Translations under genes and position numbers: made by a program
Notes under the pieces: generated by a model
The model's database searches: none
What the model was told of the DNA's origin: nothing
The model's input: only the letters and a program-made list of their open reading frames with translations
Source of the DNA: Candidatus Peribacter riflensis
Lineage (GTDB): Bacteria > Patescibacteriota > Gracilibacteria > Peribacterales > Peribacteraceae
DNA length: 32,000 nt
Direction of reading: 5' to 3'
Assembly (NCBI GenBank): GCA_001430755.1
Contig: CP013062.1
Location: forward strand, 300,001 to 332,000
Shown here: one piece after another, positions 1 to 27,934 of the stretch
Position numbering within the stretch: position 1 is the stretch's first letter
How the letters are laid out: each line of letters opens with the position of its first letter

Positions 1-240
1 ATTCCGGCCTTTGGTCGCGCGCTCAAAAACCCTTTCTTTAGCGGCGAAGGTCCTTTCTATCACATGCTGGTCGTCGTCGGATACGCAGGAGACGGCTTCA
101 TTACCAACGACCCCGGCACAAAACGGGGGGAGAAATACTGGTATCAGACGGAGGTACTCATGAACGCTCTGCATGACTGGATCGGCGTCAAAGAACTGAT
201 CGCCACCGGCCCGAAGAATGCGCTCGTCATCGAACTGTGA
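1..240 (+). CDS. C-terminal fragment of a C39-like (papain-fold) peptidase domain protein; 5' end lies outside the window
   Basis: Frame 1 is open from the window edge to TGA at 238-240. The translation ...GPFYHMLVVVGYAGDGFITNDPGTKRGEKYWYQ... resembles the catalytic-His block (H-x-hydrophobic-x-GY ... NDP) of Peptidase_C39_2-type domains. Confidence 0.5.
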   Translation: MPAFGRALKNPFFSGEGPFYHMLVVVGYAGDGFITNDPGTKRGEKYWYQTEVLMNALHDWIGVKELIATGPKNALVIEL

Positions 241-298
241 TCGTGTTATCAGAACGCAGCGTAGCCCCTTGAGTATTGGCAAACGAAGAGCCTGTCGT

Positions 299-670
299 TT
301 ACACGAGGTATTTCTCCGCAATATTCCAGATCTGATCATCATCCATGTCACTTTTGATGAGGTATTCATTCACATCAAAATCATTGCATTTGATGATATT
401 TTTCTTGTCACTCAGATTGGTGCAGACGACGACGGGAAATTTCAACTTCTTCTTTTTCCTGTGCTGCAGGACGGCGAACCCGTCGACATTCGGCATCAGC
501 AGATCCAAGAGGAGAAGATCGGGAGGATCCTGATCGATACTGTCGATTGCCTCCTGTCCGTCACGTGCAGTGCTCACACGAACGCCGTGCTTGGCGAGCA
601 GGCTGCGGATCATGCTCAGGAGGAATGCTTCATCCTCGGCAACGAGGACGTGTTTCTGTGGCTTGTCCAT
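299..670 (-). CDS. Single-domain CheY-like response regulator (receiver only)
   Basis: From the internal Met (cat at 668-670): MDKPQKHVLVAEDEAF...PDLLLLDLLMPNVDG...VVVCTNLS...YLIKS. The acidic pair, phospho-acceptor Asp, T/S and Lys positions are all present. The longer track ORF (to 769) adds an implausible N-terminus. Confidence 0.8.
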   Translation of the reverse strand: MDKPQKHVLVAEDEAFLLSMIRSLLAKHGVRVSTARDGQEAIDSIDQDPPDLLLLDLLMPNVDGFAVLQHRKKKKLKFPVVVCTNLSDKKNIIKCNDFDVNEYLIKSDMDDDQIWNIAEKYLV

Positions 671-728
671 AGGTGGGAGGAGAAAAGAAAAAAATGGAAA
701 GCGAGTCTGCTGTCTGTCGGTCGGTTCT

Positions 729-1091
729 CTAGCGCAGGTATCCTTCGATCGCGGGCCAGAGATCATCATCGTCCAGATCGTTCTTCACGAAGTAATTCTG
801 CGCCTGCATTTCCTTACACTTGTCCCGCGTTTCCTTGTCGCTGAGATTGGAGAGCACGATGACGGGGCACTCCAAGCTCTTTTCCCTGATGAACCTCATG
901 ACGCCGTGACCATCCAGCACCGGCATGAGGATATCGAGGAGAAGCAAATCCGGCACTTCCTTCTCCAGAGCCTCAACCGCCTCCTTCCCGTTATAGGTGA
1001 TCGTGACACGTATGTTGTATTTGCTCAGAACTTTTGCCATCAAATCGGCGAGAGCAGTGTCGTCTTCGGCGATGAGAACGTGTTTGCTCAT
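729..1091 (-). CDS. Single-domain CheY-like response regulator (receiver only)
   Basis: MSKHVLIAEDD...PDLLLLDILMPVLDG...VIVLSNLS...YFVKN. A complete receiver signature with no output domain. It lies 6 nt downstream of the kinase gene. Confidence 0.85.
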   Translation of the reverse strand: MSKHVLIAEDDTALADLMAKVLSKYNIRVTITYNGKEAVEALEKEVPDLLLLDILMPVLDGHGVMRFIREKSLECPVIVLSNLSDKETRDKCKEMQAQNYFVKNDLDDDDLWPAIEGYLR

Positions 1092-1097
1092 AAAAAA

Positions 1098-2444
1098 TCA
1101 GGAAGGAAATAAAAGAGTGAACGTGGTGCCCTTGTTCTCCTGTGAGACAAAAGAGATCGTCCCGCCGATCAGACGTACGATGTTATAGACCATATACAAG
1201 CCGATGCCGGTGCCGGCTTCCACCGGGCTGGCAACATTCGATGCACGAAAGAATTTCTCCGGGATTCTCTTTTGCTCCTCCTGCGGAATACCGTAACCCG
1301 TATCCGCCACATCGATACGGATCGACTCTTTTTCTTTGGTAACACTCATGCGCACCTTCCCGCCTCTGGGCGTATACTTGAGGGCATTGCTGAGGAGGTT
1401 ATCCAGAATTTCGATGAGCAGCTGCTTATCCGTTCGTACCATGAGATCCTGCGGACACTGAAGGGCGAGTTCCAGCCCGTTCCTCTGCCGGTGGGCATCA
1501 TGCAGACGGGAGATCTTTTCCAGCTCCCTCTGCAAGACCACCTGTTCAAGTTCCGGTTCCATGCCGTCCTCTTCAAGATGGGAGATCATCAGCATGCGCC
1601 GGATGGTCGAGGCCATGTTCATGGACGTTTCGTGTGCGGTTTTCACCAGCTTCGCCTGATCTTCGGTGAGATTTTCCCGCTTCAGACTTGAGAGGACCCA
1701 TCGGATCGCCGTGAGAGGCGTCCTCAACTGATGGGATGCGATGGACATGAATTCCGATCTGGCTTTTTCGATTTCCTTTTCTTTGGTGATATCTCGAAAC
1801 ACCTTTACGGCGCCGATCAGATCTTTGCCGATGAAGATGGGCGCAACCGTTAGGGCAACCGGAAAAGACGTTCCATCTTTCCGCTTGTAGTACATCGTTG
1901 TGGTTGTGGTTGTGGTGGAACGATCCTTCAGGGTCTTGGTGATCAGGCGTTCCAATGCCGGAATGGTTTTGCCGGTCGAGTCCGACATCGGTATGACCTT
2001 GGAGAGCAACTTTCCCTGTGTCTCTCCCTCTTTCCAGCCCAATAATCTCTCACATGCCTTGTTCACGAGAAGAATCCGTCCGTTTTTATCCGTTGCCACC
2101 AGGCCTTCACCGATACTTGCCAGGATCGCCTCGTCTTTCGCTCTGACCTTTTCTAAGTCTTTGGTGCGCTCAAGAACTTTCTTCTCAAGCGTTTTTCGAG
2201 ATATCCTGAGTGCGTCCGCCGTTATAACCAGCTTGCGCCTGACCACCTCTTTTTCCTTGGCGGTTGCGGCGAGTTGCCTGGCTTTGAGACGCAGTTTCTT
2301 CGCCGTCACCACCAGCTTGCGCCTGACGACCTCTTTTTCCCTGGCGGTCACCACCAGCTTGCGCCTGACGACCTCTTTTTCCTTGGCCAAAAACTTGAGT
2401 TTGAGGGCTATGCCATTGGATGCGGAATGAATAGTTTTTCTCAT
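1098..2444 (-). CDS. Soluble sensor histidine kinase (repeat-rich coiled-coil N-terminus, PAS, HisKA, HATPase_c)
   Basis: H-box SIASHQLRTPLTAI; N/G boxes LSNALKYTP, DTGYGIP, GTGIGL; PAS-like block ILASIGEGLVATDKNGRILLVNKACERLLGW...FRDIT. No hydrophobic transmembrane segment is visible. Confidence 0.9.
   Translation of the reverse strand: MRKTIHSASNGIALKLKFLAKEKEVVRRKLVVTAREKEVVRRKLVVTAKKLRLKARQLAATAKEKEVVRRKLVITADALRISRKTLEKKVLERTKDLEKVRAKDEAILASIGEGLVATDKNGRILLVNKACERLLGWKEGETQGKLLSKVIPMSDSTGKTIPALERLITKTLKDRSTTTTTTTMYYKRKDGTSFPVALTVAPIFIGKDLIGAVKVFRDITKEKEIEKARSEFMSIASHQLRTPLTAIRWVLSSLKRENLTEDQAKLVKTAHETSMNMASTIRRMLMISHLEEDGMEPELEQVVLQRELEKISRLHDAHRQRNGLELALQCPQDLMVRTDKQLLIEILDNLLSNALKYTPRGGKVRMSVTKEKESIRIDVADTGYGIPQEEQKRIPEKFFRASNVASPVEAGTGIGLYMVYNIVRLIGGTISFVSQENKGTTFTLLFPS
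2221..2388 (-). repeat. 42-bp in-frame direct repeats inside the kinase gene (14-aa unit EKEVVRRKLVVTAx)
   Basis: gtcaccaccagcttgcgcctgacgacctctttttcc(c/t)tggc(g/c) occurs at 2305-2346 and 2347-2388 in tandem. A diverged third copy is at 2221-2262. Confidence 0.85.
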
Positions 2445-2505
2445 AAGTGTTCAGGACCGATGGAGAGGGTTATTTGCATGAGTGTGAATGGTCAATGTAC
2501 ACGTT

Positions 2506-2514
2506 TTTGTAGCA
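2506..2514 (-). promoter_or_regulatory. Candidate extended -10 (TGCTACAAA on the minus strand) for the kinase/regulator operon
   Basis: The reverse complement of tttgtagca reads TGcTACAAA, about 60 nt upstream of ATG 2444. It shares the TGCTAnAA core seen upstream of several other genes here. Confidence 0.25.
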
Positions 2515-2533
2515 TGTGACCAACTCTTCATCT

Positions 2534-2914
2534 TCAGGACGGTCTTGCCCCTTCAATAGTGCGCAACTTCCCTTCGAGAGCGGTAATCTTGGTCTGCAGT
2601 TGCTCCTTGGCCACCTCCCGATGCCTGATCTCTGCGATGTAATCATCCCGGATTCCTTTTGACAAATCGACCAGCTCTTCACCCTCGCGCCGCAATGCTT
2701 CCTGAAACTTACGCTCCTTCTCGGCATTCGCTCCCATTTGCTGTGCCTTCTCCCTCTCCAGTGTCGCCAGATTGCTCGTCTCGGTGCGCTTTTCGGCGTC
2801 CCGACGATCCTTTTTCGTTTTCATGCCCGTTACCCTATTCCGGTTGAGGCGTTCTTCGTCTCCGACGATCTTGGTGATGCGTTCCTGCAGTGGCTGGATG
2901 GTATCTTCGCTCAT
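2534..2914 (-). CDS. Hypothetical charged coiled-coil protein
   Basis: 126-aa ORF rich in E/K/R heptad-like sequence. Its ATG overlaps the stop of the upstream gene (2911-2914). I recognise no family. Confidence 0.55.
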   Translation of the reverse strand: MSEDTIQPLQERITKIVGDEERLNRNRVTGMKTKKDRRDAEKRTETSNLATLEREKAQQMGANAEKERKFQEALRREGEELVDLSKGIRDDYIAEIRHREVAKEQLQTKITALEGKLRTIEGARPS

Positions 2915-3192
2915 GTTTTGGAGAGGGAAGGAATGATCTTTGCCTCACCTTCCATGTGGGCGAGGCGCGTGTAGTAATCAGGGATCTCGCGCAGGTGGGC
3001 AAGAGCGATTTTGCCCGTCATGAGGGCATCATCGTTGGTCACGTTCGTCTGCACATCACGCTTGCCGTGCTCAAGCTCGATGTCCATTCCCATACGGAAT
3101 TGCTCGAGATCGAAATGGACATCGCTCCAGAAGATATCCAGTTTCAGAGCGGTATCCTGTGCCTGTTCTGTAGTGAAGTGCTGTGCGGTCAT
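2911..3192 (-). CDS. Small conserved protein, DUF5661-like
   Basis: From the Met at 3190-3192: MTAQHFTTEQAQDTALKLDIFWSDVHFDLEQFRMGMDIELEHGKRDVQTNVTNDDALMTGKIALAHLREIPDYYTRLAHME. The ELEHG...TNVTNDD...KIALAHL.E.PDYYTRL pattern matches my recollection of that family. Confidence 0.55.
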   Translation of the reverse strand: MTAQHFTTEQAQDTALKLDIFWSDVHFDLEQFRMGMDIELEHGKRDVQTNVTNDDALMTGKIALAHLREIPDYYTRLAHMEGEAKIIPSLSKT

Positions 3193-3233
3193 AGGATGGG
3201 TGGGTGAAGACAAGGATAGGATTGAAAGAGGCC

Positions 3234-3476
3234 TCACGCGTGTTTCAGCGTGCGCAGCGCGGCGATGAGTACGATGGCTCCGATGACCGCCATCACGATG
3301 GCACCGAGAGTCCCGTACGCGGTGATGCCGAGCAAGCGAAAGAGGAGACCGCCGATGAGTGAGCCGACAATGCCGACGACGATGTCACCGATGATGCCGT
3401 ATCCGCCACCGCCCATGATTTGCCCGGCGAGCCAGCCGGCGATGAGGCCGATGAGGAGAAACCAGATAATATCCAT
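3234..3476 (-). CDS. GlsB/YeaQ/YmgE-family small membrane protein (transglycosylase-associated)
   Basis: 80 aa, glycine-zipper-rich: FLLIGLIAGWLAGQIMGGGGYGIIGDIVVGIVGSLIGGLLF. This is typical of the family. Confidence 0.8.
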   Translation of the reverse strand: MDIIWFLLIGLIAGWLAGQIMGGGGYGIIGDIVVGIVGSLIGGLLFRLLGITAYGTLGAIVMAVIGAIVLIAALRTLKHA

Positions 3477-3505
3477 AGTGAATGGGGGGAAGAACTGAAA
3501 AGTGA

Positions 3506-4207
3506 TTAACGGAGATTGCTGATGGTCGCGCTCGTTTTATTCCTCTCGCTCACTTTTAGGCGATACACGATTTCCGCCATTTCTCCGCGGGTCATCGTTT
3601 GATCAAAACGCGTGATACTGACGGGGATGGCACGCAGATCGGAGAGACGCTGCACGTAGGGGCGATACCAGAATTCTCCGGTGTCCTTTGCTTCGATACT
3701 CAGACTGAAGACATTGCAGATGATCTTGGCTGCCTCTACGAAGTTGATGGAATTTGCGGGGCCGTATGTGCCGTTCGGATAGCCATCGATGATGGCATTC
3801 ATTTTGGCGAAACAGACATCTGTGGCGTACCAGGAATCTCTGGCAACATCAGAGAAGAAAACGGTGTTTACGCCTGTCGGGACATTTGCTCTGAGACAGT
3901 CGCTCATGTTGTTCGTATCCACAATGAAGGGATTGACAACAAAGTGCACAAATTCCGCTCGATTGATGCGCGTCGCAGGCCTGAACGTTCCATCCAGGTA
4001 TCCCTTGAGCACATTCTGCGTGCGGAGATATTCAATGCTTTGATAGTACGTACTGTTGACGGGGACATCGGTGAATGGATTTTCCGAAAACGCCGTATCC
4101 TGCTGTGCAAGTGCAGTGCCGCCAAAGAACAGGAAGCCGATGAGGAGAAACCAGGTGAGTACCATGGAATGATGGGTGAAGGGGAAAATAAACAGTGATG
4201 AGCGCAT
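3506..4207 (-). CDS. Secreted protein with three S-layer homology (SLH) domains
   Basis: Three SLH-like blocks: FTDVPVNSTYYQSIEYL...RPATRINRAEFV; FSDVARDSWYATDV...GPANSINFVEAAKI; ...WYRPYVQRL...MTRGEMAEIVYRL. The N-terminus is hydrophobic. The start is uncertain (4207 or 4165). Confidence 0.75.
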   Translation of the reverse strand: MRSSLFIFPFTHHSMVLTWFLLIGFLFFGGTALAQQDTAFSENPFTDVPVNSTYYQSIEYLRTQNVLKGYLDGTFRPATRINRAEFVHFVVNPFIVDTNNMSDCLRANVPTGVNTVFFSDVARDSWYATDVCFAKMNAIIDGYPNGTYGPANSINFVEAAKIICNVFSLSIEAKDTGEFWYRPYVQRLSDLRAIPVSITRFDQTMTRGEMAEIVYRLKVSERNKTSATISNLR

Positions 4208-4256
4208 TCTCTGACACCCCCGCCAAGAGCGGGGGCAGCAAAGAACATGCAATGTT

Positions 4257-4820
4257 CTAAAGAGCTCTCAGCAGGTTCAGCGCGTTTCGCTCTTCGACTG
4301 CGACAATGATTGAACGACGGGTGGGTGCGCTTCCAACATAGGAGCGGGAATACCCATTGCTTGCAAAGGCTACGGTTGCCGCATCGATGAATGTCGCTGC
4401 ACTGGTATTGACAGTAATCTTTGGGAAGTCTGGGGAGTAGATCGTCTGATCCATGGTGGACCGGGCGGGATGCGTTGAGGAATTGAATCGCGCGAGATCG
4501 ACCGGATTGAAAAATAGTTGCCGTTCCAACATCCTCAAGTTAGAAACGAGGAGACGATGCGCATTCTTGTATTCCGGAGAGCCGATCTCCAGAGTGTCGA
4601 TGAGATGCATCTGCAGATTCGCCGCCCGGACCTCCTGCATGAGTGTCGGATAGAGCGGTGAGGGGATAGCGGGAGCATCCATAAATATCGCCTTTGGTTG
4701 CTCCAGAAAACCGTCTTCCGGCTGCACCGCCGTGTTGGTTTGAGCGAGTGCCGAGGAAGTCATAGTGCCGAGAAAGAGGAGTGTGATTGGCAGGCCGATG
4801 GTGAAGATACGGTTGCTCAT
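4257..4820 (-). CDS. Secreted hypothetical protein
   Basis: The start at cat 4818-4820 gives the signal-peptide-like MSNRIFTIGLPITLLFLGTMTSSALAQ. The rest of the track ORF (to 5117) runs through the conserved non-coding element and is not credible as coding. Confidence 0.6.
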   Translation of the reverse strand: MSNRIFTIGLPITLLFLGTMTSSALAQTNTAVQPEDGFLEQPKAIFMDAPAIPSPLYPTLMQEVRAANLQMHLIDTLEIGSPEYKNAHRLLVSNLRMLERQLFFNPVDLARFNSSTHPARSTMDQTIYSPDFPKITVNTSAATFIDAATVAFASNGYSRSYVGSAPTRRSIIVAVEERNALNLLRAL

Positions 4821-5062
4821 GATGGGGAGGGGAAGGGGGGGAGGGGATGAAACGTGCCAATGACGACGGATGGGGCAGAAAGAACGAGTTACGTTCGATA
4901 CATGGTCCTTCGTACCGCGGACTGAATGGCCCGGGAGCCAGGAAGACCCGTAAAGGTGCTCTGATGAATTGCGGGAAACCACGATTGCAGAACGCCGGAG
5001 AATCGCCGGGCAGGTCGGGGGGAGGGATAGTAAGAACGTGAGATATTCATAGGAAGGTGGGG

Positions 5063-5160
5063 GAAATGAACTTTCACAATAGATGCGTGCGACTTTTGCG
5101 CAAGCGTCTGCGCACACACGAAGTCGCCGGGTTTAGGCCATCTGGGTGCTCATCTGGACC
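5063..5160 (-). repeat. Leader element E1, copy A (98 nt)
   Basis: gaaatgaactttcacaatagatgcgtgcgacttttgcgcaag...gtcgccgg...ctcatctggacc. 41 of the first 42 nt are identical to copy C. A 24-nt block (gtctgcgcacacacgaagtcgccg) and ctcatctggacc are identical to copy B. Confidence 0.9.
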
Positions 5161-5368
5161 GCAGTCGATCCTTCCTCCTTTCAGTGGTCAGCCGAGAGTG
5201 GCCATGAGTGGTCTGAACTGTTCAGTGATGTCCGTATCCTGCAATCTGAATAAAGGAAGTGACGGGAGGCACCACGTGAGGAGGACGCACGGTCTTTCTG
5301 AAGTGCGGGAGAACGGTTCTTCACTATTTTCATCGTGGCAGTGGAATGGAGAGTGTTCTGGAGCTTCC

Positions 5369-5437
5369 ATAGTCCCTTTCATGGAGAAAGGGCACATCAG
5401 ACATATCTCATCGACAAAGCATGATGATGTTTCTTAG
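5369..5437 (-). repeat. Leader element E2, copy A
   Basis: atagtCCCTTTCatggaGAAAGGGcacatcagacatatctcatcgacaaagcatgatgatgtttcttagg aligns with 10461-10528 and 11626-11694. Confidence 0.8.
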
Positions 5438-5524
5438 GGATTGATCCTCCTCTTTGAGATGTCTCCAGTCGGCAATGATTTCTTTCTGTATGCGCGAAGG
5501 TGCCGTAGGAATCATTGCATGAAC

Positions 5525-5553
5525 GAGCCGGGTCGCTGTGGGCAACCCGGCTC
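5525..5553 (-). terminator. Hairpin downstream of the SLH/CHRD gene (candidate terminator)
   Basis: GAGCCGGGT-11 nt-ACCCGGCTC, a 9-bp perfect stem about 25 nt past the stop at 5579 on the minus strand. No strong U-tract follows. Confidence 0.4.
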
Positions 5554-5578
5554 TCCGGCCAGAATGATGTTGATGTCT

Positions 5579-7462
5579 TCAGCGCAGGAGCTGGCCACGG
5601 ATTTCGCCATCCGGATGTACCGATGAATGGACGTTCACGTAGAACCCACCATCAAAGAGCGTGCTACGCTCATCATTGGTGAGATTCGACCACAAGCCGA
5701 TTGCGCGCTTTCCGTTGAACGTGATCGTCGAGACCACCGGTCCGGTCTGCCCGGCAAGTGCCTGATGAAAATGGGCGGAAGTGATGGATCCACTCATGTT
5801 TCGGACGGTGATGTCGTAGTGAAGGCCGTCGTTCATCAAGACGAGGGAACCCGTTCCGCTTGCAGTTGTCGACACGGACGGTACCTCCTGGCCTCCGGTC
5901 ATGTTCGTGTGGAAATTCACCGTGCCTGCAGCGTAGACGAAGGAAGTGTCATCCGAGAAGATGACGTCGTTTGTTGCCTGCATGCCTCGAACATCCAGAG
6001 TGTAGGATTGTTGCGCCTGGAGAGCTTCTCCGAGAGAGAGTTCGACCATGCGATTGGTGAGGATCTGCGACGAAATGATAGGCAGGGTGTGTGTGCTGTC
6101 CGTGAGGACATACCGCGAAGATTCTTCTGCCCGCAACGAATCGAGATCCACATCAAAGCTGACGTTGATGCGGTTCGCCGTGATAGGCGTCACTGTTGTG
6201 ATATATCCCGTCTGTGCCGCTGTAAGGATCACAGTGGCACTCTCAGTGAAGTCTGTACCGGTTCGCGTGAGAAGATGCGTTGCCGTCACGCGATACGTGA
6301 TATTCGCGGTGATATCCGTGGCGAGCAGCAGCTCGATCGTGCGATTGTTGAGGATCGTCACGGTTTGAATGTTGATCTCTTCAACGCCGGAGGCTCTCGA
6401 CATCGTAAAGCGAGAGGCATCGGCCGCACGGACCGTGTCGAGATCACTATCGAATGCCAGGCGGATACGACGCGTCGTAAGTGCCGTAATAGTGGTGATA
6501 CGAGCTGTGGGAGCCGTGAAGCTCAGGCTTGCGTTATCCGAGAAGATTGTGCCGTCCTGTGCAAGAAGATCGCTGGCAGTGACGAGGTACAAGACTCCTG
6601 TCGCAAGCGTATTGGAGAGGCTGAGCTCGACCGTCTTACTGTCGATCAACGATGCAGAGGCAACGGTGATGCTGTGAGAAATGGAGTAACGAGCCGCATC
6701 CTCCGCACGGGCGGCGGCGAGGGCGCGATCAAACACGAGGCGGACCCGTGTGGGAGAAACGACGGATACGTCGGTGATATGTGCCGCCTGCTGACCGCAG
6801 TCCGTTCCATACTGGAGGTTTAAGGAGGCGCGATAGAACATGGTGACCATCTCCGCACGGTTCATGAATGCTGCGGGACGGACTCTCTCTGTTCCATTAT
6901 CGCCCTGAAGAACGCAGTGGTCGGCCGATGACTGAATGTTGGTGAAGTACCATTGGTTCTGCTGATTATCCGAGAATACCGGTGCTTTTCCCGACCGGTT
7001 GAGCGAGAATGCCCGCACGAGTAGAGATGCGGCCTCCGCACGGTTCACATTGCTGGCGGCACTCGCAGTGCAGGGACGTGACTGTTGATAGCAGTTGGCG
7101 TTGCCATGGACCCAGCCTGCGTCGGCGGCTGCTTCAAAGTACGGGAAGTACCATGCGCTTCGTGGCACGTCATTGAAGCTCGGTACGGTTGGGTAGAGCA
7201 GCGTTGTGCCATTCAGATTGACCAGGAGCTTCACAAGTTCCGCGCGGGTGGCCAAAGCCGCAGGACGTAACGTTGTCGTGGGATCGAGAGCGCCGGACTC
7301 TAAGAGCGCGGCAGCAGCGTCTTCATAGTAGGCCCCTGCAGGCACGTCGACGAAGGGTGTCTTCTGCGCGAAGACGGAAAGCGGCATGCCGGAACAGAAG
7401 AGGAGAACGCCTGTGATTGTGTAGATCCGCTGTGCGCGGAAGGGAGAGGGAAGGGAGAACAT
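5579..7462 (-). CDS. Cell-surface protein: signal peptide, 3 SLH domains, 3 Ig-like repeats of about 95 aa, C-terminal CHRD domain
   Basis: SLH blocks: FVDVPAGAYYEDAA..., FNDVPRSAWYFPYF..., FSDNQQNQWYFTNI.... Three paralogous repeats: ITDVSVVSPTRVRLVFDRAL..., ITTITALTTRRIRLAFDSDL..., ITTVTPITANRINVSFDVDL.... CHRD-like C-terminus: MTGGQEVPSVSTTASGTGSL...AHFHQALAGQTGPVV...FYVNVHS..HPDGEIRGQL. Confidence 0.85.
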   Translation of the reverse strand: MFSLPSPFRAQRIYTITGVLLFCSGMPLSVFAQKTPFVDVPAGAYYEDAAAALLESGALDPTTTLRPAALATRAELVKLLVNLNGTTLLYPTVPSFNDVPRSAWYFPYFEAAADAGWVHGNANCYQQSRPCTASAASNVNRAEAASLLVRAFSLNRSGKAPVFSDNQQNQWYFTNIQSSADHCVLQGDNGTERVRPAAFMNRAEMVTMFYRASLNLQYGTDCGQQAAHITDVSVVSPTRVRLVFDRALAAARAEDAARYSISHSITVASASLIDSKTVELSLSNTLATGVLYLVTASDLLAQDGTIFSDNASLSFTAPTARITTITALTTRRIRLAFDSDLDTVRAADASRFTMSRASGVEEINIQTVTILNNRTIELLLATDITANITYRVTATHLLTRTGTDFTESATVILTAAQTGYITTVTPITANRINVSFDVDLDSLRAEESSRYVLTDSTHTLPIISSQILTNRMVELSLGEALQAQQSYTLDVRGMQATNDVIFSDDTSFVYAAGTVNFHTNMTGGQEVPSVSTTASGTGSLVLMNDGLHYDITVRNMSGSITSAHFHQALAGQTGPVVSTITFNGKRAIGLWSNLTNDERSTLFDGGFYVNVHSSVHPDGEIRGQLLR

Positions 7463-7614
7463 GGGATGGGGGGGAAAAAGAGAGAAAAGCGCAGGGCGAT
7501 GCTGGTTCCGAGAGCATCACCCTCGCGCTCCTCGGAGGTGGAAGCCGCCCTGCAGAGGAATCCTCTATGCGGGGCCTTGCATAGGAAGGGGGGAATGAAA
7601 AAGAACAAGCGGTA

Positions 7615-7839
7615 TTACTGCCCTGAAGGATTGGAACTTGGCAGAGGGCCATTGATATTCAGATTCACCGAGGGGGCCTCAGTGGCATCCGCAAGAGGTC
7701 GATTATTGAATGGGAAGACCCGCATAACGTACAGCGCGATGCCCAGAACAACGAGAATGGCGACGATTGCAACGAGAGCGGTCAGTGAAGATGCAGTGCC
7801 GTTGTCATGCTGGACGTCGTGTTCGATGATGGTTGGCAT
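7615..7839 (-). CDS. Small single-pass membrane protein (hypothetical)
   Basis: 74-aa ORF with one clear transmembrane helix (LTALVAIVAILVVLGIALYVM). Same strand as, and directly downstream of, the DUF3494 gene. Confidence 0.35.
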   Translation of the reverse strand: MPTIIEHDVQHDNGTASSLTALVAIVAILVVLGIALYVMRVFPFNNRPLADATEAPSVNLNINGPLPSSNPSGQ

Positions 7840-7889
7840 AGAGAAGTGGGGAAAAGAAGAAGTAAGGAAGAAATAAAAGAGAAAAAAGC

Positions 7890-9332
7890 TTAGTTCGCCG
7901 GAACGGTGACAGTGTTGCTCTGCAGTGTTACTGCACCGATGCGAGCGAGCAGTCGGCCATCCACTTTGGCGCCTGTTTGAAGCGAGATGGACTGGTCGGC
8001 AAGAATCGTCCCTTTGAACGTTGCATTTGTTCCAAGGTTTGCCGAGGTACCCACCTGCCAGAAAATATTGGCTGCCTTCGCCCCGCCGATGAGTACGATC
8101 TGTCGCCCGGCTGACACACTCAATGTCGATGCCACCTGAAAGACAAACACGGCATTGGCGTTGCCCTTGGCATCCAGTGTCAGATCACCGGAAGAGATCT
8201 CCAGTGATGACGTAGATTTATATAGGCCCGGGCTCAAGGTCGATCCGCCCAGATTTCCCGCGACACTCACCGGATTCGTGGAACGTCCTGCAAGGTCATT
8301 GTAGGCAATGGTGAGTGCCACTTTTGCCTGTGATGCCAGAGTATCCGTCACATGGATCGCACCTCCGTTCACAATCCCCGGTGCGAAGCCGGTGACCGCA
8401 GATCCCGGGCTGACGCCCAAATTTCCCGTTACGGTCGTTGGACCGGTATTGGTTACCGTTGAACCGGCCAATACACCGAATGTCGATGCGGCTCCCAACG
8501 ACACAGAAGACTGATTGGCATGGAGTGAGGTGTTCGCTGAAGAAGAGGTGACGCCGCACGAGAAATTCGCATATTCACTATTTCCGTCCAGCGTGGTGTA
8601 GGCATAGCCGCCACAAGAACTTTTCCAGGTCAGAGCAGTACCCCTTGGTCCTTTCACACCGGCGACGCAGGTCCCGATCCCGCTGCAGCCGAATGCGAGA
8701 GGGCTGTCTGAAGCAGTGGCGGTATCGCACCTCTGCTCCGTCGTCGCGCCACTGAAGACGCATTTGACTTGTTCTGTAACAAAGGCAGAGGTGGTGGAAT
8801 TGACGCATGTTCCATTCACACATGTCTTGGTCGGGCACGGTGCCGCAAAACATGCAATTTGCGGGCAATCAGTGTCTGCTGTGCATCGGGTGGACGGCGT
8901 GCATTGGCGAGCCAATGCAGTGCAGGCGATCGTTCCCGTTGCCCTCCCGCAGTTGCTTACATCAACCGGCGTCTGTGATTGCCAGCCATTCGTGCAAGCG
9001 CCCCAGGCGCATTTCCACTTTGGAGTGCAGGGTGTCGGAGACGACGAAGAGAAGCTTGCCCTGCTTGTACTGCGAGAACTCGCATGTCCATTATTCAACG
9101 CAACTGCCTGTTGCACGCATGTGCGAAATCGCAGACGGATTGCATGCCGATCTTCTGAACCGAAATTCAAACCAAAGACGCCATTGTGGTTTCTCTGGCG
9201 CAAACACACTTGCACCTGTTCGCCTGTCGCCCCCATTCTCTGACCTTGGGCGGATGCAAGCGTGAGGCCCATGAGGGAGAGCGCGGATGCCGCGATGAGC
9301 GTTGTACCTATACTGAAGCGTAATCGTGTCAT
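7890..9332 (-). CDS. Secreted protein with a Cys-rich N-terminal region and a C-terminal DUF3494 (ice-binding-like) beta-helix domain
   Basis: Signal peptide MTRLRFSIGTTLIAASALSLMGLTLASAQG. C-terminal half: ASTFGVLAGSTVTNTGPTTVTGNLGVSPGSAVTGF...AANIFWQVGTSANLGTNATFKGTILA...GRLLA, matching the DUF3494 pattern. Confidence 0.8.
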   Translation of the reverse strand: MTRLRFSIGTTLIAASALSLMGLTLASAQGQRMGATGEQVQVCLRQRNHNGVFGLNFGSEDRHAIRLRFRTCVQQAVALNNGHASSRSTSRASFSSSSPTPCTPKWKCAWGACTNGWQSQTPVDVSNCGRATGTIACTALARQCTPSTRCTADTDCPQIACFAAPCPTKTCVNGTCVNSTTSAFVTEQVKCVFSGATTEQRCDTATASDSPLAFGCSGIGTCVAGVKGPRGTALTWKSSCGGYAYTTLDGNSEYANFSCGVTSSSANTSLHANQSSVSLGAASTFGVLAGSTVTNTGPTTVTGNLGVSPGSAVTGFAPGIVNGGAIHVTDTLASQAKVALTIAYNDLAGRSTNPVSVAGNLGGSTLSPGLYKSTSSLEISSGDLTLDAKGNANAVFVFQVASTLSVSAGRQIVLIGGAKAANIFWQVGTSANLGTNATFKGTILADQSISLQTGAKVDGRLLARIGAVTLQSNTVTVPAN

Positions 9333-9350
9333 ACAAAATTGGGGGGGAAA

Positions 9351-9443
9351 GAAATGTCACAATGGTCGCGTGTCATTTTTGTGCAAGTGTCTGCGCACAC
9401 ACGAAGTCGCCGTGATGAAACCCTCCCGACACTCATCTGGACC
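9351..9443 (-). repeat. Leader element E1, copy B (93 nt)
   Basis: gaaatgtcacaatgg...gtctgcgcacacacgaagtcgccg...ctcatctggacc. It ends 18 nt upstream of ATG 9332 of the DUF3494 gene. Confidence 0.85.
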
Positions 9444-9548
9444 GGCCTTCGCCCGAAACCATGAGGAGCAATGAATTTGCTGTTCGTTATTGCTTTATGG
9501 AGGGGAGGCTACGGCCGGCAGGCCACTCTTCCTGCAAGACGAGATCGT

Positions 9549-10424
9549 TCAGGCAGGCAGTGCGGCTGCGCTGGCCGGCTTTTCCACTTTAGGCATCCAG
9601 CTGGTCAGAAAATCCATGGGCATGAGATCAATGATCTTTCGTGCCTGAAGTTCAGGTTCGAGGAATCTGTTGTTGTACTTCCACTCCATCTCTTTGAGGT
9701 AATACCCCGTATTCCGTTTCCAGATGCCATGGTGGCTGCGTACGCGCTCCCGGATCCATGTCCACAGTTGCTCCGTACCATCTTTCCCCTTTTCATCCTT
9801 CGTGAAACGGTGGAACTTGCCGCAGCAAATGAAACCGGCATAGCCCTCGTGGCGGCCAGCCGTTTTCTCTTTGGAGCCAAACATATGAAAGTGAAACACC
9901 GCTTCATCGTCTTTGAGCGGGTCAATGGTGACTTTGCCGCTCTCGTGCAACTGCACGCCGAATACCGGCGGCTTTCCCTTCTCATCACCGGAACGGATTT
10001 TACTATTGCACCATCTGCACCGGGATTTGCCGTGCACGACCTGTACGTCTCCTCCATGAGAAGAGAGGAGCTGGATTTTTTCCTGTGGCAGACTCTTTTC
10101 GACCAGAAGCTTGCGAAAGTGATCGTAGTAGGCAGCAACCAGCTTATAGCGATGATGCGTAATCTGCGACGTCCGGTGTGCCGAAAAATCGAGGCAGAAA
10201 CAGAGGAGGATCTCGGCACACTGCTGCAGCTTGTTGATTGCTGTCACTTTGTGGATACGAAACTTCTTGCCGCACGTGGTGCACTTTCTGCGTCCGTCCC
10301 CCAGGGTATTCAGTTTCGTTCGAATCCCGCAATAAGGGCAAAGGAGGTGACGCGAGGTATCACTTTGGGTTGGACGCACTTTGTCCCTGAGGTGCGGTAG
10401 GAGAGAATCCGCGTTAATAATCAT
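9549..10424 (-). CDS. IS1595-family (ISXO2-like) transposase-like protein; the catalytic triad may be degenerate
   Basis: N-terminal zinc ribbon CPYCG...CTTCGKKF. C-terminal block ...EQLWTWIRERVRSHHGIWKRNTGYYLKEMEWKYNNR matches the N.iEgfWs.lKr....hGv.....yl.E..frYNnR signature. Where family members have vEiDEty, this protein has VQVVHGK. Confidence 0.65.
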   Translation of the reverse strand: MIINADSLLPHLRDKVRPTQSDTSRHLLCPYCGIRTKLNTLGDGRRKCTTCGKKFRIHKVTAINKLQQCAEILLCFCLDFSAHRTSQITHHRYKLVAAYYDHFRKLLVEKSLPQEKIQLLSSHGGDVQVVHGKSRCRWCNSKIRSGDEKGKPPVFGVQLHESGKVTIDPLKDDEAVFHFHMFGSKEKTAGRHEGYAGFICCGKFHRFTKDEKGKDGTEQLWTWIRERVRSHHGIWKRNTGYYLKEMEWKYNNRFLEPELQARKIIDLMPMDFLTSWMPKVEKPASAAALPA

Positions 10425-10460
10425 CGTAGGGGCGGAAGAGGAACCCTTTGAACGATCAGT

Positions 10461-10528
10461 ATAGTCCTTTTTCAGAAGAAAAGGCGCGAGATCGATATCT
10501 CATCGACATAATTTCATTATGTTGCTCA
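10461..10528 (-). repeat. Leader element E2, copy B (upstream of the transposase-like ORF)
   Basis: atagtCCTTTTTCagaaGAAAAGGcgcgagatcgatatctcatcgacataatttcattatgttgctcag. Confidence 0.8.
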
Positions 10529-10632
10529 GAAACTTTGCATCGGTCTCCAGATGAATCTCCTGTGCATCTGTGCATTTCTTTCTGGCCTCCACTGCGCTCA
10601 CTTTTTTGAAGAAGTCAGTCTCACATCATCTG

Positions 10633-11346
10633 TCAGCTCTGGATGAATACCGGAATCCCGATATCCGCCCATTCATAAATCTCATTCGCTTCATCAGGAA
10701 GAAAGCGCACGCATCCGTGAGAAACCGGTACGCCGATGTGACTCAGTGCTTCGCTCCAGAATCCGGAACTCTCTGCCGATACTCCCAAATAGGGAAGGCT
10801 GTGGAGTCCGAATGCACTGTTCTTCGTGAACGACATATATTTCGGCATGCGGTACGGAACTGCCTGACCGCTCACGCGCAGGTCCTCTTTCTTGTAGATC
10901 TGAAATTCCCCCCGTGGGGTCGGCGTGGCCGGAGCACCAGAGCTGATCTGGTACGTTTTCACGATGATCCCGTACTCGGTGAGGAATGCTTCCTGTGTTC
11001 CCAGATAAATCCAAATAGCCTTTGCCCCGGAGGCGACTGTTGGATCGAGGAGCCCCGTTGCGCCCGACTCCGTAGATTGCGTAACGGGAATGTCTGAGGA
11101 AGGCAGGAATGGCGTGTCTGCCCTTTGAGAACCTGTGCTGCCGGATTTCTTATTGATCCGCCGATTGAGCCTGCAAGAGATATCACAGGCATACGTCCGG
11201 GGAGTTGCGCGAGACGCCGCAGTTGCAACCCTTGTTTCGACGACGTGCCCCGCGTCCGTCTGTTGTTCCTTGGCGATCACCACTGCTGCGTATCCCGTGA
11301 GGAGGAGGGTGGTGATCGCGGCCAGTGCTGTTTTGAGATGTATCAT
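10633..11346 (-). CDS. L,D-transpeptidase (YkuD-fold) with signal peptide
   Basis: The start at cat 11344-11346 gives MIHLKTALAAITTLLLTGYAAVVIA. The catalytic block is ...FGLHSLPY...IGVPVSHGCVRFLPDEANEIYEW (the SHGC[VI]R motif). Confidence 0.85.
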   Translation of the reverse strand: MIHLKTALAAITTLLLTGYAAVVIAKEQQTDAGHVVETRVATAASRATPRTYACDISCRLNRRINKKSGSTGSQRADTPFLPSSDIPVTQSTESGATGLLDPTVASGAKAIWIYLGTQEAFLTEYGIIVKTYQISSGAPATPTPRGEFQIYKKEDLRVSGQAVPYRMPKYMSFTKNSAFGLHSLPYLGVSAESSGFWSEALSHIGVPVSHGCVRFLPDEANEIYEWADIGIPVFIQS

Positions 11347-11370
11347 GGCGCTCAACTGTCGGTGATTAAA

Positions 11371-11468
11371 GAAATGAACTTTCACAATAGATGTGTGCGA
11401 CTTTTGCGCAAGAGCAAGCGCATACACAGAGTCGCCAGTGTCGGCCTCTCTCGGCGCTTATCTGGACT
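11371..11468 (-). repeat. Leader element E1, copy C (98 nt)
   Basis: gaaatgaactttcacaatagatgtgtgcgacttttgcgcaag...gtcgccag...cttatctggact. It ends 24 nt upstream of ATG 11346. Confidence 0.9.
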
Positions 11469-11625
11469 GCGTGTGTATTGTTTCGTTCGTGTACTCACGC
11501 TGAGACGAAGAAAGCGGTGAGGAGTGGCGCTTGGGATCGGACGCGTTTCTTCCTTAAGATGCGGCAGAAAAATAGACAGTGGTCATCACTGTGGAAGCGG
11601 GATCGAGCGATTGCCAGCTTTCGCA

Positions 11626-11694
11626 ATAGTCCTTTTTACAGAGAAAGGATGAGAAATACATATCCGGTCGACAATCATCCATGATGTTGCTTGG
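11626..11694 (-). repeat. Leader element E2, copy C
   Basis: atagtCCTTTttacagagAAAGGatgagaaatacatatccggtcgacaatcatccatgatgttgcttgg. Confidence 0.8.
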
Positions 11695-11782
11695 AGGTTT
11701 CTTTTTGGCCATGCACATGCGGCAATCTTTTGCAGAGGGTCATAATGAAGGACTCGTCAATGACACATTTTTGCGGCGATCG

Positions 11783-11788
11783 TATACT
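11783..11788 (+). promoter_or_regulatory. Candidate -10 box (TATACT) 8 nt before the zwf-gnd ATG, implying a leaderless or near-leaderless transcript
   Basis: TATACT-ggccgcct-ATG(11797). No Shine-Dalgarno sequence can fit in the gap. Confidence 0.3.
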
Positions 11789-11796
11789 GGCCGCCT

Positions 11797-14196
11797 ATGC
11801 AGGAGAATTCCCGCAACAATATCCCCACCATCATCGTGGTCCTGGGGGCAACCGGCGACCTCATGGCGAAGAAAATCGTCCCGTCCCTTCTGCACTTGTC
11901 TTCGGAGGACAAGATTCCCAACAAGTTCAGGGTGGTGGGCTTTGCGCGTCGCGATCTCACCGATGATGCCTTCCGGGAACATATTGCATCCATTGTCGCG
12001 GAGCACAAGGAGCAGCATCCCACGGACTTGGATCCGCAGGATTTCCTCAAGCTCTTCTCGTACCATTCCGGCGATTTTGAACAGGTCGCAGCCTATCGGG
12101 GGCTCCAATCCAAACTGCAGGCGATTGATGCCGAGTGGGGGGTGTGCACGAACAAGGTGTACTACCTTGCGGTCCCACCCGAAAAATTTGCGTCCATTTT
12201 TGAAGGTCTGGCCGCAACCGGGCTCAACAAGCCCTGCGGCGGTGCGTACGGCTGGACACGCATGCTCATCGAAAAGCCGTTCGGTCATGACGGCGCTTCA
12301 GCGGAGAAATTGGAGCAGCTGCTGTCACGCTACTTTCAGCAAGAACAGATTTATCGCATCGATCACTATCTGGCCAAGGAGCTCATTCAGGGCATTTCAC
12401 ATTTTCGTTTTTCGAATACGCTGCTCGAATCGTCGTGGAGCAACCGGGACATCGAGAAAATCGAAATCCGACTGCTCGAAAACATCGGCGTGGAAACGCG
12501 CGGCAGTTTTTACGAAAGTGTCGGAGCGCTGAAAGACGTAGGGGAGAACCATGTTCTCGAAATGCTGGCCGCGATCACCATGGATGCCCCGGTGAGCATG
12601 AGCATAGAAGAATTGCACGAGAAGCGTGCGGAGCTGATGAACACGCTCAAGCCGTGGACGCTCGAAGACATACGGCAGAACACCTACCGCGCTCAGCATG
12701 ACGGCTATCGGACGATCAAGGGTGTTCGCAGCGATTCCACTGCGGAAACGTATTTCAAGCTGAAGACCGAATTACTGCATCCCGCCTGGCAGGGCGTGCC
12801 CATCACCCTCGAGGCCGGCAAGCGCTGCCCCGCCTCCCGCAAAGAGATTGTGGTGACGTTCAGGCATCCGCATGCCTGCCTCATGTGTTCGCGGGATCAT
12901 CGCATCCAGAACCGGGTGGTGTTTGCGCTGGAGCCCGAAGAGAAAATTTCGATCCACTTCTGGACCAAGAAATCGGGCTACGAACACACGCTGGAGGAAC
13001 GCACGTTCGATTTCTTCGTCCACAAGAGAACATCCCGGGTGAAGTACGTCGAGGAATACAGCAAATTGATTTTCTCCTGCATTCTCGGCGACCAGACGGT
13101 GTTCTTAAGTCCCGATGAAGTCCGGGCGCAGTGGAGGTTCGCCGATCCGCTTGTGCGTGCCTGGAAGCAGAATGTCGTGCCGCTCCACCACTACAAGCCC
13201 GGCACCAGCGAAATATTCGAGGCATCTGCGCACATCGGCGCAGAGCCCAAGACAACGGCTCTCGTGAAAGAAATGGCCATTGTGGGCCTGGGTAAGATGG
13301 GGGCGAACATGAGCCGGCGCATGATGGAGCAGGGCTGGCGCGTGGTGGGGTTTAACCGGTCACCGGAAGTCACCAAGGCATTGGCAAAGGAGGGTCTGGT
13401 GCCCGCGATGACGCTTGCAGAGGCGGTGCAGAAACTTCCCGACAGAAAGATCATCTGGCTCATGGTTCCAGCCGGTCAGGCGGTGGATGACGTGCTGTTT
13501 GGCGCAGAAGGGCTTTCTCGTATCCTGAAGCGCGGAGACATCGTCATCGATGGCGGCAATTCCTACTACAAAGACACCGTTGCCCGTGCGAAAAAACTCC
13601 ACCGTCTCGGGATCAGGTTTCTGGATTGCGGAACGTCCGGCGGACCGAATGGTGCCCGCGGCGGCGCCTGTCTGATGATCGGCGGGGAGCGAAAAGATTT
13701 CGAAGACAGCGAGACGCTGTTCAAGGATTTCGCCTTGCCGAACGGCTATCAGTTTTTTCCCGGTCATGGTGCCGGCCACTTCGTGAAGATGGTTCACAAC
13801 GGCATCGAGTACGGCATGATGCAGGCCATCGGAGAGGGTTTCGCATTGATGAAGAAAGTTCCGTACAAGCTGGATCTGGCTCGCGTCGCGGACGTATACA
13901 ACCATGGCAGCGTCATCGAGTCGCGGCTGATCGGCTGGCTGGAGGAAGCACTCCAACTCTACGGCCAGGATCTGAAAGCGGTGTCCGGCTCGGTGCAGCA
14001 ATTGGGGGAGGGAGCATGGACGGTGAAGACGGCGAAGCAAATGAAGATTCCCGCGCAGGTGATCGAGAGCGCGCTCAATTTCCGCTACCACTCCGAGCAG
14101 CACCCCAGCTTCACGGGCAAGATCGTTTCCGCGCTCAGAAACCGCTTCGGCGGGCATGCCGTTTCGGCAAAGCCGAAGAAGAAGCGGGCCGGTTGA
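11797..14196 (+). CDS. zwf-gnd: Fusion protein: glucose-6-phosphate 1-dehydrogenase (aa 1 to about 490) plus short-form 6-phosphogluconate dehydrogenase (aa 493-799)
   Basis: Zwf motifs: VLGATGDLMAKK, LIEKPFGHD, YRIDHYLAKE. From the in-frame ATG at 13273: MAIVGLGKMGANM (Rossmann), GGNSYY, DCGTSGG, GHFVKMVHNGIEYG (Gnd/YqeC-type). There is no stop anywhere between the two halves. Confidence 0.85.
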   Translation: MQENSRNNIPTIIVVLGATGDLMAKKIVPSLLHLSSEDKIPNKFRVVGFARRDLTDDAFREHIASIVAEHKEQHPTDLDPQDFLKLFSYHSGDFEQVAAYRGLQSKLQAIDAEWGVCTNKVYYLAVPPEKFASIFEGLAATGLNKPCGGAYGWTRMLIEKPFGHDGASAEKLEQLLSRYFQQEQIYRIDHYLAKELIQGISHFRFSNTLLESSWSNRDIEKIEIRLLENIGVETRGSFYESVGALKDVGENHVLEMLAAITMDAPVSMSIEELHEKRAELMNTLKPWTLEDIRQNTYRAQHDGYRTIKGVRSDSTAETYFKLKTELLHPAWQGVPITLEAGKRCPASRKEIVVTFRHPHACLMCSRDHRIQNRVVFALEPEEKISIHFWTKKSGYEHTLEERTFDFFVHKRTSRVKYVEEYSKLIFSCILGDQTVFLSPDEVRAQWRFADPLVRAWKQNVVPLHHYKPGTSEIFEASAHIGAEPKTTALVKEMAIVGLGKMGANMSRRMMEQGWRVVGFNRSPEVTKALAKEGLVPAMTLAEAVQKLPDRKIIWLMVPAGQAVDDVLFGAEGLSRILKRGDIVIDGGNSYYKDTVARAKKLHRLGIRFLDCGTSGGPNGARGGACLMIGGERKDFEDSETLFKDFALPNGYQFFPGHGAGHFVKMVHNGIEYGMMQAIGEGFALMKKVPYKLDLARVADVYNHGSVIESRLIGWLEEALQLYGQDLKAVSGSVQQLGEGAWTVKTAKQMKIPAQVIESALNFRYHSEQHPSFTGKIVSALRNRFGGHAVSAKPKKKRAG

Positions 14197-14233
14197 TGCG
14201 GCTTTCGAGTCACAGAGTCCATTCCTGCCTGCG

Positions 14234-15283
<1,050 letters not shown>

Positions 15284-27917: not shown

Positions 27918-27934
27918 CTAAGATGCTATCAGTC

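Follow-up and report, generated by a model that had tools for sequence, protein, structure and literature searches.

The stretch of DNA analysed here (the window) comprises 32,000 nucleotides of Candidatus Peribacter riflensis, positions 300,001 to 332,000 of contig CP013062.1, and contains three copies of a module built from two conserved non-coding segments, E2 and E1. In the middle copy these segments flank an open reading frame (ORF) of 291 amino acids related to the transposases of IS1595-type insertion sequences (ISs). The picture that emerges is a composite one: the ORF is likely to be a domesticated IS1595-transposase gene, and the two ORF-less modules are likely to be old deleted duplicates of it that have retained its flanks in front of envelope genes. 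The sequence-only reading of this DNA had already distinguished three copies of the E1/E2 pair, one of them around the ORF, and the repeat coordinates, pattern counts and profiles confirm that observation.

Layout of the three modules

The limits of E1 and E2 were set with nhmmer, using profiles made from all species, and all elements of the modules are in the minus orientation. As repeats, E1 occupies 5063-5162, 9346-9445 and 11371-11470, and E2 is found near 5403-5434, 10495-10526 and 11660-11691; three matches to the E1 core pattern were obtained against 0.03 expected by chance, and three to the E2 pattern against 0.00 expected. Along the minus strand each module runs from E2 through a spacer to E1 and on to the start codon of a minus-strand gene, which lies 10-30 nt from the end of E1 in every module. 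By profile, module A is made up of E2 at 5335..5434 (E 3.4e-14), an ORF remnant recognised by alignment with the ORF at 5160..5334, and E1 at 5058..5159 (E 2.6e-27). Module B consists of E2 at 10426..10526 (E 4.6e-24), the ORF itself at 9549..10424, and E1 at 9342..9442 (E 3.3e-26), which lies between the ORF and the next gene, as the downstream flank of the one and the upstream region of the other. Module C has E2 at 11591..11691 (E 1.8e-18), a decayed remnant of the ORF 5' end, also found by alignment, at 11468..11590, and E1 at 11369..11467 (E 6e-24). The spacers of modules A and C measure 175 and 123 nt by profile, or ca. 207 and 156 nt with the narrower limits used in the sequence-only reading.

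Descent of the ORF from IS1595 transposases

Taken alone, the ORF protein scores only 12.6 bits against PF12762 (cutoff 27; E 0.14) and reaches E 0.049 against the NCBIfam IS1595 model, and both matches are limited to the last ~38 residues. The family to which it belongs comprises 134 clusters at 90% identity, nearly all of them full length and 40-93% identical, and every member with a named organism is from Candidatus Peribacteria or Peregrinibacteria. An exhaustive profile search rendered about 22 family clusters (50% identity), then a sharp drop, and then 897 more distant matches with E<=0.001; the ten matches below the family that were checked are all genuine IS1595 transposases, with PF12762 scores of 36-127 bits. 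When the family was aligned with canonical IS1595 transposases by hhalign, a probability of 99.9% was obtained (E 3.7e-35, 241 columns), and PF12760, the IS1595 zinc ribbon, was detected in 14 of 26 family members. The protein is laid out as an N-terminal CxxC..CxxC zinc ribbon, a helical domain, a shortened RNase-H-like core, in which D126, G190, E218 and R225 are found, and a C-terminal motif, YLKEMEWKYNNR. On the evidence of the hhalign comparison, the ORF is a full-length homologue descended from an IS1595-family transposase, and the label "IS1595-like" given to it earlier was correct as a statement of ancestry despite the sub-cutoff PF12762 score.

Loss of catalytic residues and maintenance of the protein

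Catalytic columns were scored over 105 full-length family members. Asp is present in the first Asp column in 32 of them and in the second in 10, the second being occupied by Gly in 61; the third catalytic column holds Glu in 78, and the basic residue at +7 is Arg in 62. The four zinc-ribbon Cys, F155/G156, Y195, W221 and E245/K249/N251 are conserved in 95-100% of the same members. In the window protein the clearest catalytic loss is that of the second Asp, replaced by G190. It had been noted that the context of the first Asp was replaced as well, and this turned out to be roughly right: the canonical residue pairs with V127 in hhalign, and its column is Asp in fewer than a third of the members, although MAFFT pairs it with D126. 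Judged by its substitutions, the ORF is under purifying selection, the identity with the ORF of the related locus L007 being 0.85, 0.87 and 0.58 at codon positions 1, 2 and 3, respectively, and 0.61 at four-fold degenerate sites. The earlier suggestion that the protein may be inactive or domesticated is thus supported by both the catalytic columns and the purifying selection.

Three other loci carry in-frame deletions within the gene, each with different breakpoints. Residues 1-116 are joined to 257-276 in L050 (10001-10528), residues 1-111 to 246-278 in L052 (6896-7458), and residues 1-103 to 255-279 in L054 (2172-2603), so that in all three the DDE-like core is gone and the N-terminal module is fused to the C-terminal tail. 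Short forms of 161-166 amino acids also persist as several distinct clusters (P0109-P0111, P0113, P0119 and P0120). Because the core has been deleted in frame independently and the short forms persist, the zinc-ribbon/helical N-terminus with the C-terminal tail appears to be the part that is maintained. These patterns indicate that the requirement for the DDE residues has been lost and that the zinc-ribbon/helical N-terminus and the C-terminal tail have been kept under selection.

Outside the family, the nearest IS1595-like proteins include several without EvDE and/or YTD (P0159, P0162, P0163, P0168, P0175, P0179, P0180, P0184 and P0187), and there may be other catalytically degenerate IS1595 descendants beyond the Peribacteria.

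E2 and E1 as conserved flanks with promoter-like geometry

In about 25 species E2 lies directly 5' of the ORF, ending just before its ATG, and the start of E1 coincides with the ORF stop codon or closely follows it. E1 can be detected behind the ORF even in family members that are 43-51% identical, and this conservation implies that E2-ORF-E1 is an ancestral unit. In module B a lineage-specific insert of ~106 nt (9443..9548, minus strand) separates the ORF stop from E1; it is also present in L061 and is missing from L004 and L007, in which E1 begins at the stop codon or overlaps with it. The insert holds a small hairpin, AGCAAT..ATTGCT.

Conservation within both segments is arranged in short blocks. 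E2 consists of ACAT..TGTCGAT, TTTC, an invariant AAAGGAC with TAnnnT, and finally ~45 C-rich nt that extend to the ATG, and AAAGGACTA is among its short DNA blocks; E2 of module B has a -10-like TATACT at 10458-10463 and a C-rich stretch of ~45 nt resembling a 5' untranslated region (UTR). E1 contains GTCCA, GGCGACTTCGTGT, CTTGCG, a spacer of exactly 16 nt, (T/C)ATTGT, TTC.TTCCCCC and the ATG, with GTCCA / GGCGACTT among its short blocks, and its invariant columns are CTTGC, the 16-nt spacer, A-T-x-G-T and then the ATG. In E1 of module B these correspond to a -35-like TTGCAC (9381-9386), a spacer of 16 nt, a -10-like CATTGT (9359-9364), a C-run and the ATG at 9332. A structured RNA or riboswitch leader was considered for E1 and E2 and rejected: RNAalifold gave two pairs at -0.23 kcal/mol for E1 and no pairs for E2, with no covariation in either, and an Rfam scan of the window returned only a tRNA and nothing in E1 or E2. 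A nested palindrome seen in E1 of copy A is not conserved. The lack of an RNA fold, together with the block-wise conservation, argues for conservation at the DNA level, with the geometry of a promoter and flanking protein-binding sites. We infer that E2 would be the ORF's own promoter and 5' UTR, and E1 the promoter/operator of whichever gene follows. The proposal that the module ends, lying immediately 5' of envelope genes, might supply their promoters is in line with the -35/-10-like blocks of E1 directly before the start codons.

Several other possibilities for these regions were discarded. Plus-strand ORFs running across the modules (5057-5437, 9262-9474 and 9471-10400) were discarded as coding sequences, a 5-nt indel at the start of E1 breaking the frame between copies. 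The 9-mer AAAGGACTA of the E2 invariant block recurs in a tandem array at ~27.8 kb, but with a single independent extra occurrence this was not significant as a shared site. The array itself (27785-27917) is composed of about four 14-nt units (GGACTAAGGGAAAA) followed by inverted copies and makes up a long hairpin between the plus-strand genes 27479-27787 and 27923-28933. Another observation concerns the E1 block GCGACTTCGTGTGTGC (9395-9410), 13 of whose 16 positions are complementary to nt 244-259 of the ORF (10166-10181); a complementarity between E1 block and ORF at the same ORF position is found in L013 (10888-10903 and 10244-10259). It could be a long-range pairing or a chance match inherited by descent.

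Modules A and C as deleted copies of the gene

When aligned with copy B and also with paralogues from a relative, the spacers of modules A and C match the first 125-130 nt of the ORF, the start codon region included, and then jump to E1. This identifies A and C as internally deleted copies of the gene and not as bare leaders. The remnant in module A is composed of ~130 nt of the ORF 5' end and ~45 nt of other sequence, and in the window it carries an open mini-ORF of 51 codons (5178-5333); the remnant in module C has an in-frame stop after ~10 codons, and its identity to L007 (0.51-0.69) is about neutral.

Two related loci, L004, the closest relative (89% nucleotide identity, colinear with positions 1-14204 of the window) and L007, have three modules each, as in the window, and in L005 a C-type module with YkuD is found at a different place and in a different orientation. 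When the copies of the window, L004 and L007 are compared, those at the same position group together, as A, B and C, with A and C as sisters, and modules within one genome are only 58-79% identical. Grouping by position points to old duplications followed by vertical inheritance, and the sister relationship of A and C suggests a single copying of the already deleted form. Copies without an ORF were seen in no loci other than the window, L004, L007 and L005, with the partial in-frame deletions of L050, L052 and L054 in addition. A metagenome-wide scan with the E1 core pattern rendered only two short contigs, one of them from the same strain, and was uninformative on the dispersal of the modules.

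The mini-ORF of module A, with the pattern ...KDRASSS.G..RH...SDCRIRT.LNS..., is open in the window and L004 and also in L007, where it begins at another ATG, and the remnant may have kept a function, be it through the peptide or at the level of the DNA.

Insertion-sequence hallmarks, copy number and position

Repeat searches in five loci revealed no consistent inverted repeat between the outer ends of E2 and E1, and the inverted-repeat score of the E2-E1 consensus was 14.0, versus 13.7 +/- 2.0 for the null. A perfect 10-nt inverted repeat, GAAAGAAATG, does occur at the outer edges of module B (10573-10582 and 9347-9356). It is absent from A, C, L004 and ~22 other species, shrinks to 8 nt in L007 and is one nominal hit in 31 tests, and it was therefore ascribed to chance and rejected as a terminal inverted repeat (TIR). 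The five loci, the consensus test and the 31 modules agree with the earlier remark that convincing TIRs could not be found. Inverted repeats and target-site duplications (TSDs) sitting tightly around 9549-10424, which the sequence-only reading had taken as the sign of an IS independent of E1 and E2, were searched for, and no inverted or direct repeats tight around the ORF were detected. As for TSDs of the whole module, of the 8-bp kind expected for an IS1595 element, no shared 7-mer or longer word was found beyond chance, with the limit that a decayed TSD would be unrecognisable, given the age of the duplications and the ill-defined outer edge of E2.

A scan of reference genomes rendered 53 family loci in 51 assemblies, corresponding to 1.0-1.1 copies per genome. 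Where a genome has two copies, the paralogues share 66-72% nucleotide identity, and no near-identical copies were found. The exact window protein is recorded in 54 sample blocks, and the 24 contigs read that carry it, some of them longer than 1 Mb, all share one neighbourhood (YkuD, ORF, Ice_binding, CHRD/SLH). Second local copies do exist: L012 has a partial one (11729-12142) with its own E2 on the other side of its sigma/kinase/regulator genes, and in L015 (= L003; 6532-7594 and 9936-10873) the second copy is full length, again with its own E2 and beyond the sigma/kinase/regulator genes. On these two cases, the gene is one that tends toward local duplication.

Set against an active IS, the ORF thus shows the homology and lacks the catalytic motif, the TIRs and the multiple copies at variable positions. 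Modules A and C are short and internally deleted, like miniature inverted-repeat transposable elements (MITEs), but neither TIRs nor TSDs were found in them, and they number two in the window and stand at orthologous positions in L004 and L007. Of the features by which domesticated transposases have been recognised (PMC5581495), about one copy per replicon, no duplicates of at least 95% identity, a conserved position, grouping across species and purifying selection were found. A function beneficial to the host is suggested by context, through the regulatory gene cluster, the retained zinc-ribbon/helical module and the conserved blocks of flanking DNA.

Genes downstream of the modules and the signalling cluster

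E1 of module B is followed by the start of a gene for an Ice_binding-like secreted protein of 480 amino acids (7890..9332, minus strand; PF11999, E 4.5e-66), whose N-terminus resembles a signal peptide in sequence. Behind E1 of module C, and putatively driven from that module, lies a YkuD L,D-transpeptidase gene (10633..11346, minus strand; PF03734, E 7.7e-16); the pairing of module C with a YkuD gene is also found in L004, L007 and L005. E1 of module A precedes a 53-codon gene, a secreted-protein gene and an SLH-protein gene, in this order, and this position directly before the 53-codon gene is the ancestral one of E1. A single ORF of 286 amino acids (4257-5117) could be drawn after module A, but frame analysis replaced it with the 53-codon gene plus stop (4889..5050, minus strand; MNISRSYYPSPRPARRFSGVLQSWFPAIHQSTF... 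/ MNISRSYYPSPRPARRFSGVLQSWFPAIHQSTFTGLPGSRAIQSAVRRTMYRT), directly after E1, and next to it the secreted-protein gene (4257-4820, minus strand; 187 amino acids). The 53-codon gene ends at a stop codon in the same position in 22 of the 23 species, varies from 50 to 53 codons in length across species, and shows a coding-type substitution pattern, with identities of 0.63, 0.67 and 0.47 at codon positions 1, 2 and 3; it has no Pfam match. In relatives it heads an operon with genes for an extracytoplasmic function (ECF) sigma factor, a kinase and regulators.

In ~17 loci of the closer clade an ECF-type sigma gene comes after the ORF on the same strand, accompanied by genes for a PAS histidine kinase and two receiver-only regulators, and synteny with the sigma/kinase/regulator cluster is kept across ~25 loci. 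In the window the signalling cluster (299..2444, minus strand) comprises genes for a PAS histidine kinase (1098-2444) and for two response regulators that consist of a receiver only (729-1091 and 299-769). In most relatives the sigma gene is flanked by the kinase gene and the gene for the small secreted protein; in the window, L004, L005 and L007 the corresponding segment (2470-3476 in the window, minus strand) is taken up by Transgly_assoc, DUF5661 and an unknown 126-amino-acid ORF.

Proposed history and alternative explanations

In the explanation that we favour, an IS1595-family transposase would have become a vertically inherited host gene of the Peribacteria, with one or two copies per genome, keeping its zinc-ribbon/helical N-terminal module and a C-terminal scaffold and losing the requirement for DDE catalysis. 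E2 would provide the promoter and 5' UTR of this gene and E1 would serve as promoter/operator for whichever gene comes next, its ancestral target being the 53-codon gene that leads into the ECF sigma/histidine kinase/response-regulator operon. In the lineage of the window the whole E2-ORF-E1 unit would have been duplicated long ago, and most of the ORF then deleted in two copies. A and C would derive from one deleted ancestor, what is left being a two-promoter cassette that is joined at its E1 end to the start codons of genes for envelope or secreted proteins. The protein itself would be a DNA-binding factor in an envelope-signalling cluster, possibly acting on E1 or E2, and the ORF-less cassettes would put the YkuD and Ice_binding-like genes under a control shared with the sigma/kinase operon. 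Any specific regulatory role of the protein is offered tentatively, as a possibility that may well turn out to be wrong. It is rather unlikely that an exapted, sequence-specific regulator recognises E2 and E1 and that the cassettes are portable modules through which envelope and secreted-protein genes are controlled in trans together with the ECF-sigma/two-component operon; if it were true, this would be a bacterial counterpart, in a reduced genome of the candidate phyla radiation (CPR), of the eukaryotic regulatory networks derived from transposases and their ends.

Several points speak against this explanation or parts of it. E218 is kept, with R225 at +7, and D126 and E192 are nearby, so the protein may have some residual or non-canonical activity. 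An AlphaFold model of the protein (pLDDT, the model's confidence score, 73) had no significant match among PDB folds, and a profile search against PDB sequences gave none either. The clade of the window has no sigma gene at the otherwise conserved position. Between module A and L007, E2 is 88% and the remnant 86% identical, compared with 61% at four-fold sites, which is above neutral. The number of ORF-less modules refers to the fetched loci (~1 Mb), and further ones may exist outside them. Finally, a generic sigma-70/terminator scan did not flag E1 or E2, and the assignment of promoters comes only from the pattern of conservation across species.

The sequence-only reading had offered two histories. 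According to one of them, A and C are deleted derivatives of a mobile unit of ca. 1.2 kb, with E2 and E1 as its ends. The anatomy stood, since both ORF-less modules contain ORF remnants, and further features would suit an IS1595 element that is mobile now or was so recently, with A and C mobilised in trans as MITE-like derivatives: the ORF is a full-length IS1595 homologue, the internal deletions keep both flanks, the deleted form was copied once to give the sisters A and C, the C module with its YkuD gene is found elsewhere and in the other orientation in L005, and GAAAGAAATG forms a perfect 10-nt inverted repeat at the edges of module B. The mobility did not stand. GAAAGAAATG is restricted to one lineage, the consensus inverted-repeat score is at the null and no direct repeats were found flanking the module; the copy number is 1.0-1.1 per genome, no paralogues exceed 72% identity and the exact protein keeps to one neighbourhood; the copies are orthologous by position, as their grouping shows, and two of the three catalytic columns are unconserved. 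The active ISApl4, in contrast, has perfect 14-bp inverted repeats, 8-bp direct repeats and 39 copies (PMC12561309). A present or recent mobile element is thus very improbable, and the term "MITE-like" was an overstatement for two ORF-less copies in a window of 32 kb. The other history, in which E1 and E2 were the halves of a pre-existing leader and an independent IS was inserted between them in copy B, would explain why E1 and E2 lie close together without an ORF in A and C. It is refuted, to the extent that we give it almost no chance, by the match of the intervening sequence of A and C to the ORF over its first 125-130 nt, the start codon among them, by the presence of E2-ORF-E1 in ~25 species when ORF-less copies occur only in the window, L004, L007 and L005, and by the absence of inverted or direct repeats tight around 9549-10424.

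It could also be the case that the protein works as a recombinase with non-canonical residues, excising or reshuffling envelope cassettes between directly repeated modules as a form of programmed variation. Three modules in direct orientation do bracket envelope genes, and most family members keep the third catalytic residue and the basic residue at +7 (E in 78/105, R in 62/105), the window protein having D126 and E192 nearby. However, the second Asp is mostly Gly and the first Asp column is highly variable, lineages in which the whole core was deleted in frame persist, gene order is the same in 24 of 24 contigs with the exact protein, and modules of the same genome, at 58-79% identity, would be poor substrates for recombination, all of which makes such an activity highly unlikely. 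Nor do we think it at all probable that the ORF is a functionless, slowly decaying relic and that only E1 and E2 matter, as promoters. Repeated loss or truncation of the ORF with persistence of E1 and E2 (modules A and C of the window; L037, L050, L052 and L054) would fit a relic, but the 105 full-length members, at 40-93% identity, show strong position-specific conservation, substitutions accumulate much faster at the third codon position than at the other two, and both the deletions of L050, L052 and L054 and the short forms are in frame and keep the N-terminal module and the C-terminal tail. The domesticated gene with old deleted duplicates remains, in our opinion, the probable explanation.

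Comparison with known systems

The ORF family resembles the IS1595 family (ISXO2-like / IS1016-like; PF12760 + PF12762) in its domain order, from the N-terminal zinc ribbon through a helical DNA-binding region to the RNase-H-like core, in its length of ~290 amino acids and its full-length homology, and the C-terminal YLKE.EFRYNHR is common to both. The catalytic motif of IS1595 transposases is DD(E/N/H)(K/R), appearing as E-DESYFG / VYTD / HINGIENFWSQAK (PMC12561309), and the active ISApl4, with the repeats and copy number given above, has it intact, as E-DESYFG / VYTD / HINGIENFW (PMC12561309). Unlike IS1595 elements, the ORF family has unconserved first and second Asp columns, a core that is shorter by ~10-20 residues and a PF12762 score below threshold; TIRs and TSDs were not found, and the gene is single-copy and syntenic.

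The reference case of a domesticated bacterial transposase and, together with TldR, the nearest precedent in concept are the RAYTs, or TnpA-REP proteins, with their REP/REPIN sequences (PMC5581495, PMC8266576), which likewise have a copy number of about one per genome and no near-identical duplicates, are inherited vertically and are linked to short conserved non-coding sequences that also occur apart from the gene. RAYTs are, on the other hand, HUH/Y1 enzymes from IS200/IS605 that have kept their catalytic residues and are accompanied by tens or hundreds of REPINs, whereas here the ancestor was of the DDE type, catalytic residues have been lost and only two ORF-less modules were seen, at orthologous positions. 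TldR, a TnpB-like nuclease-dead repressor (bioRxiv 10.1101/2023.11.30.569447), is a parallel in being transposon-encoded, having lost catalysis and having been retained by the host, although regulation has been demonstrated for TldR and is inferred here; its fold is unrelated, since it derives from the RuvC-type TnpB, and it is RNA-guided, whereas no guide or structured RNA was detected here. Modules A and C are like MITEs in keeping both flanks of the parent with the coding interior gone, and unlike them in that they showed no TIRs or TSDs, are two copies that are not a dispersed family, are 58-79% identical to the parent module and are orthologous in three species.

Other features of the window

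A strong sigma-70-like promoter at 11760-11799 (ATGACA, 17 nt, TATACT) precedes the fused G6PD-6PGD gene (11797-14196, plus strand). Only ~9 nt separate the end of its -10 element from the ATG, which points to a leaderless or near-leaderless mRNA. The sole Rfam match in the window is a tRNA gene at 14886-14959, on the minus strand.

Implications

No report was found in the literature on this family, on the domestication of IS1595 transposases in bacteria, or on such a case in Peribacteria. To our knowledge, domestication of bacterial transposases has been documented for few lineages, among them the HUH-type RAYTs and the TnpB-derived TldR and Cas12, and the promoters and regulators of CPR bacteria are almost uncharacterised. 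Annotation of the ORF family as "transposase", and any mobility deduced from that label, would be mistaken. The several in-frame deletions of the core would amount to natural experiments on which part of the protein matters. The promoter-bearing flanks, which appear to have been copied and then put to use upstream of unrelated envelope genes, would in turn offer a handle on gene regulation in CPR bacteria.

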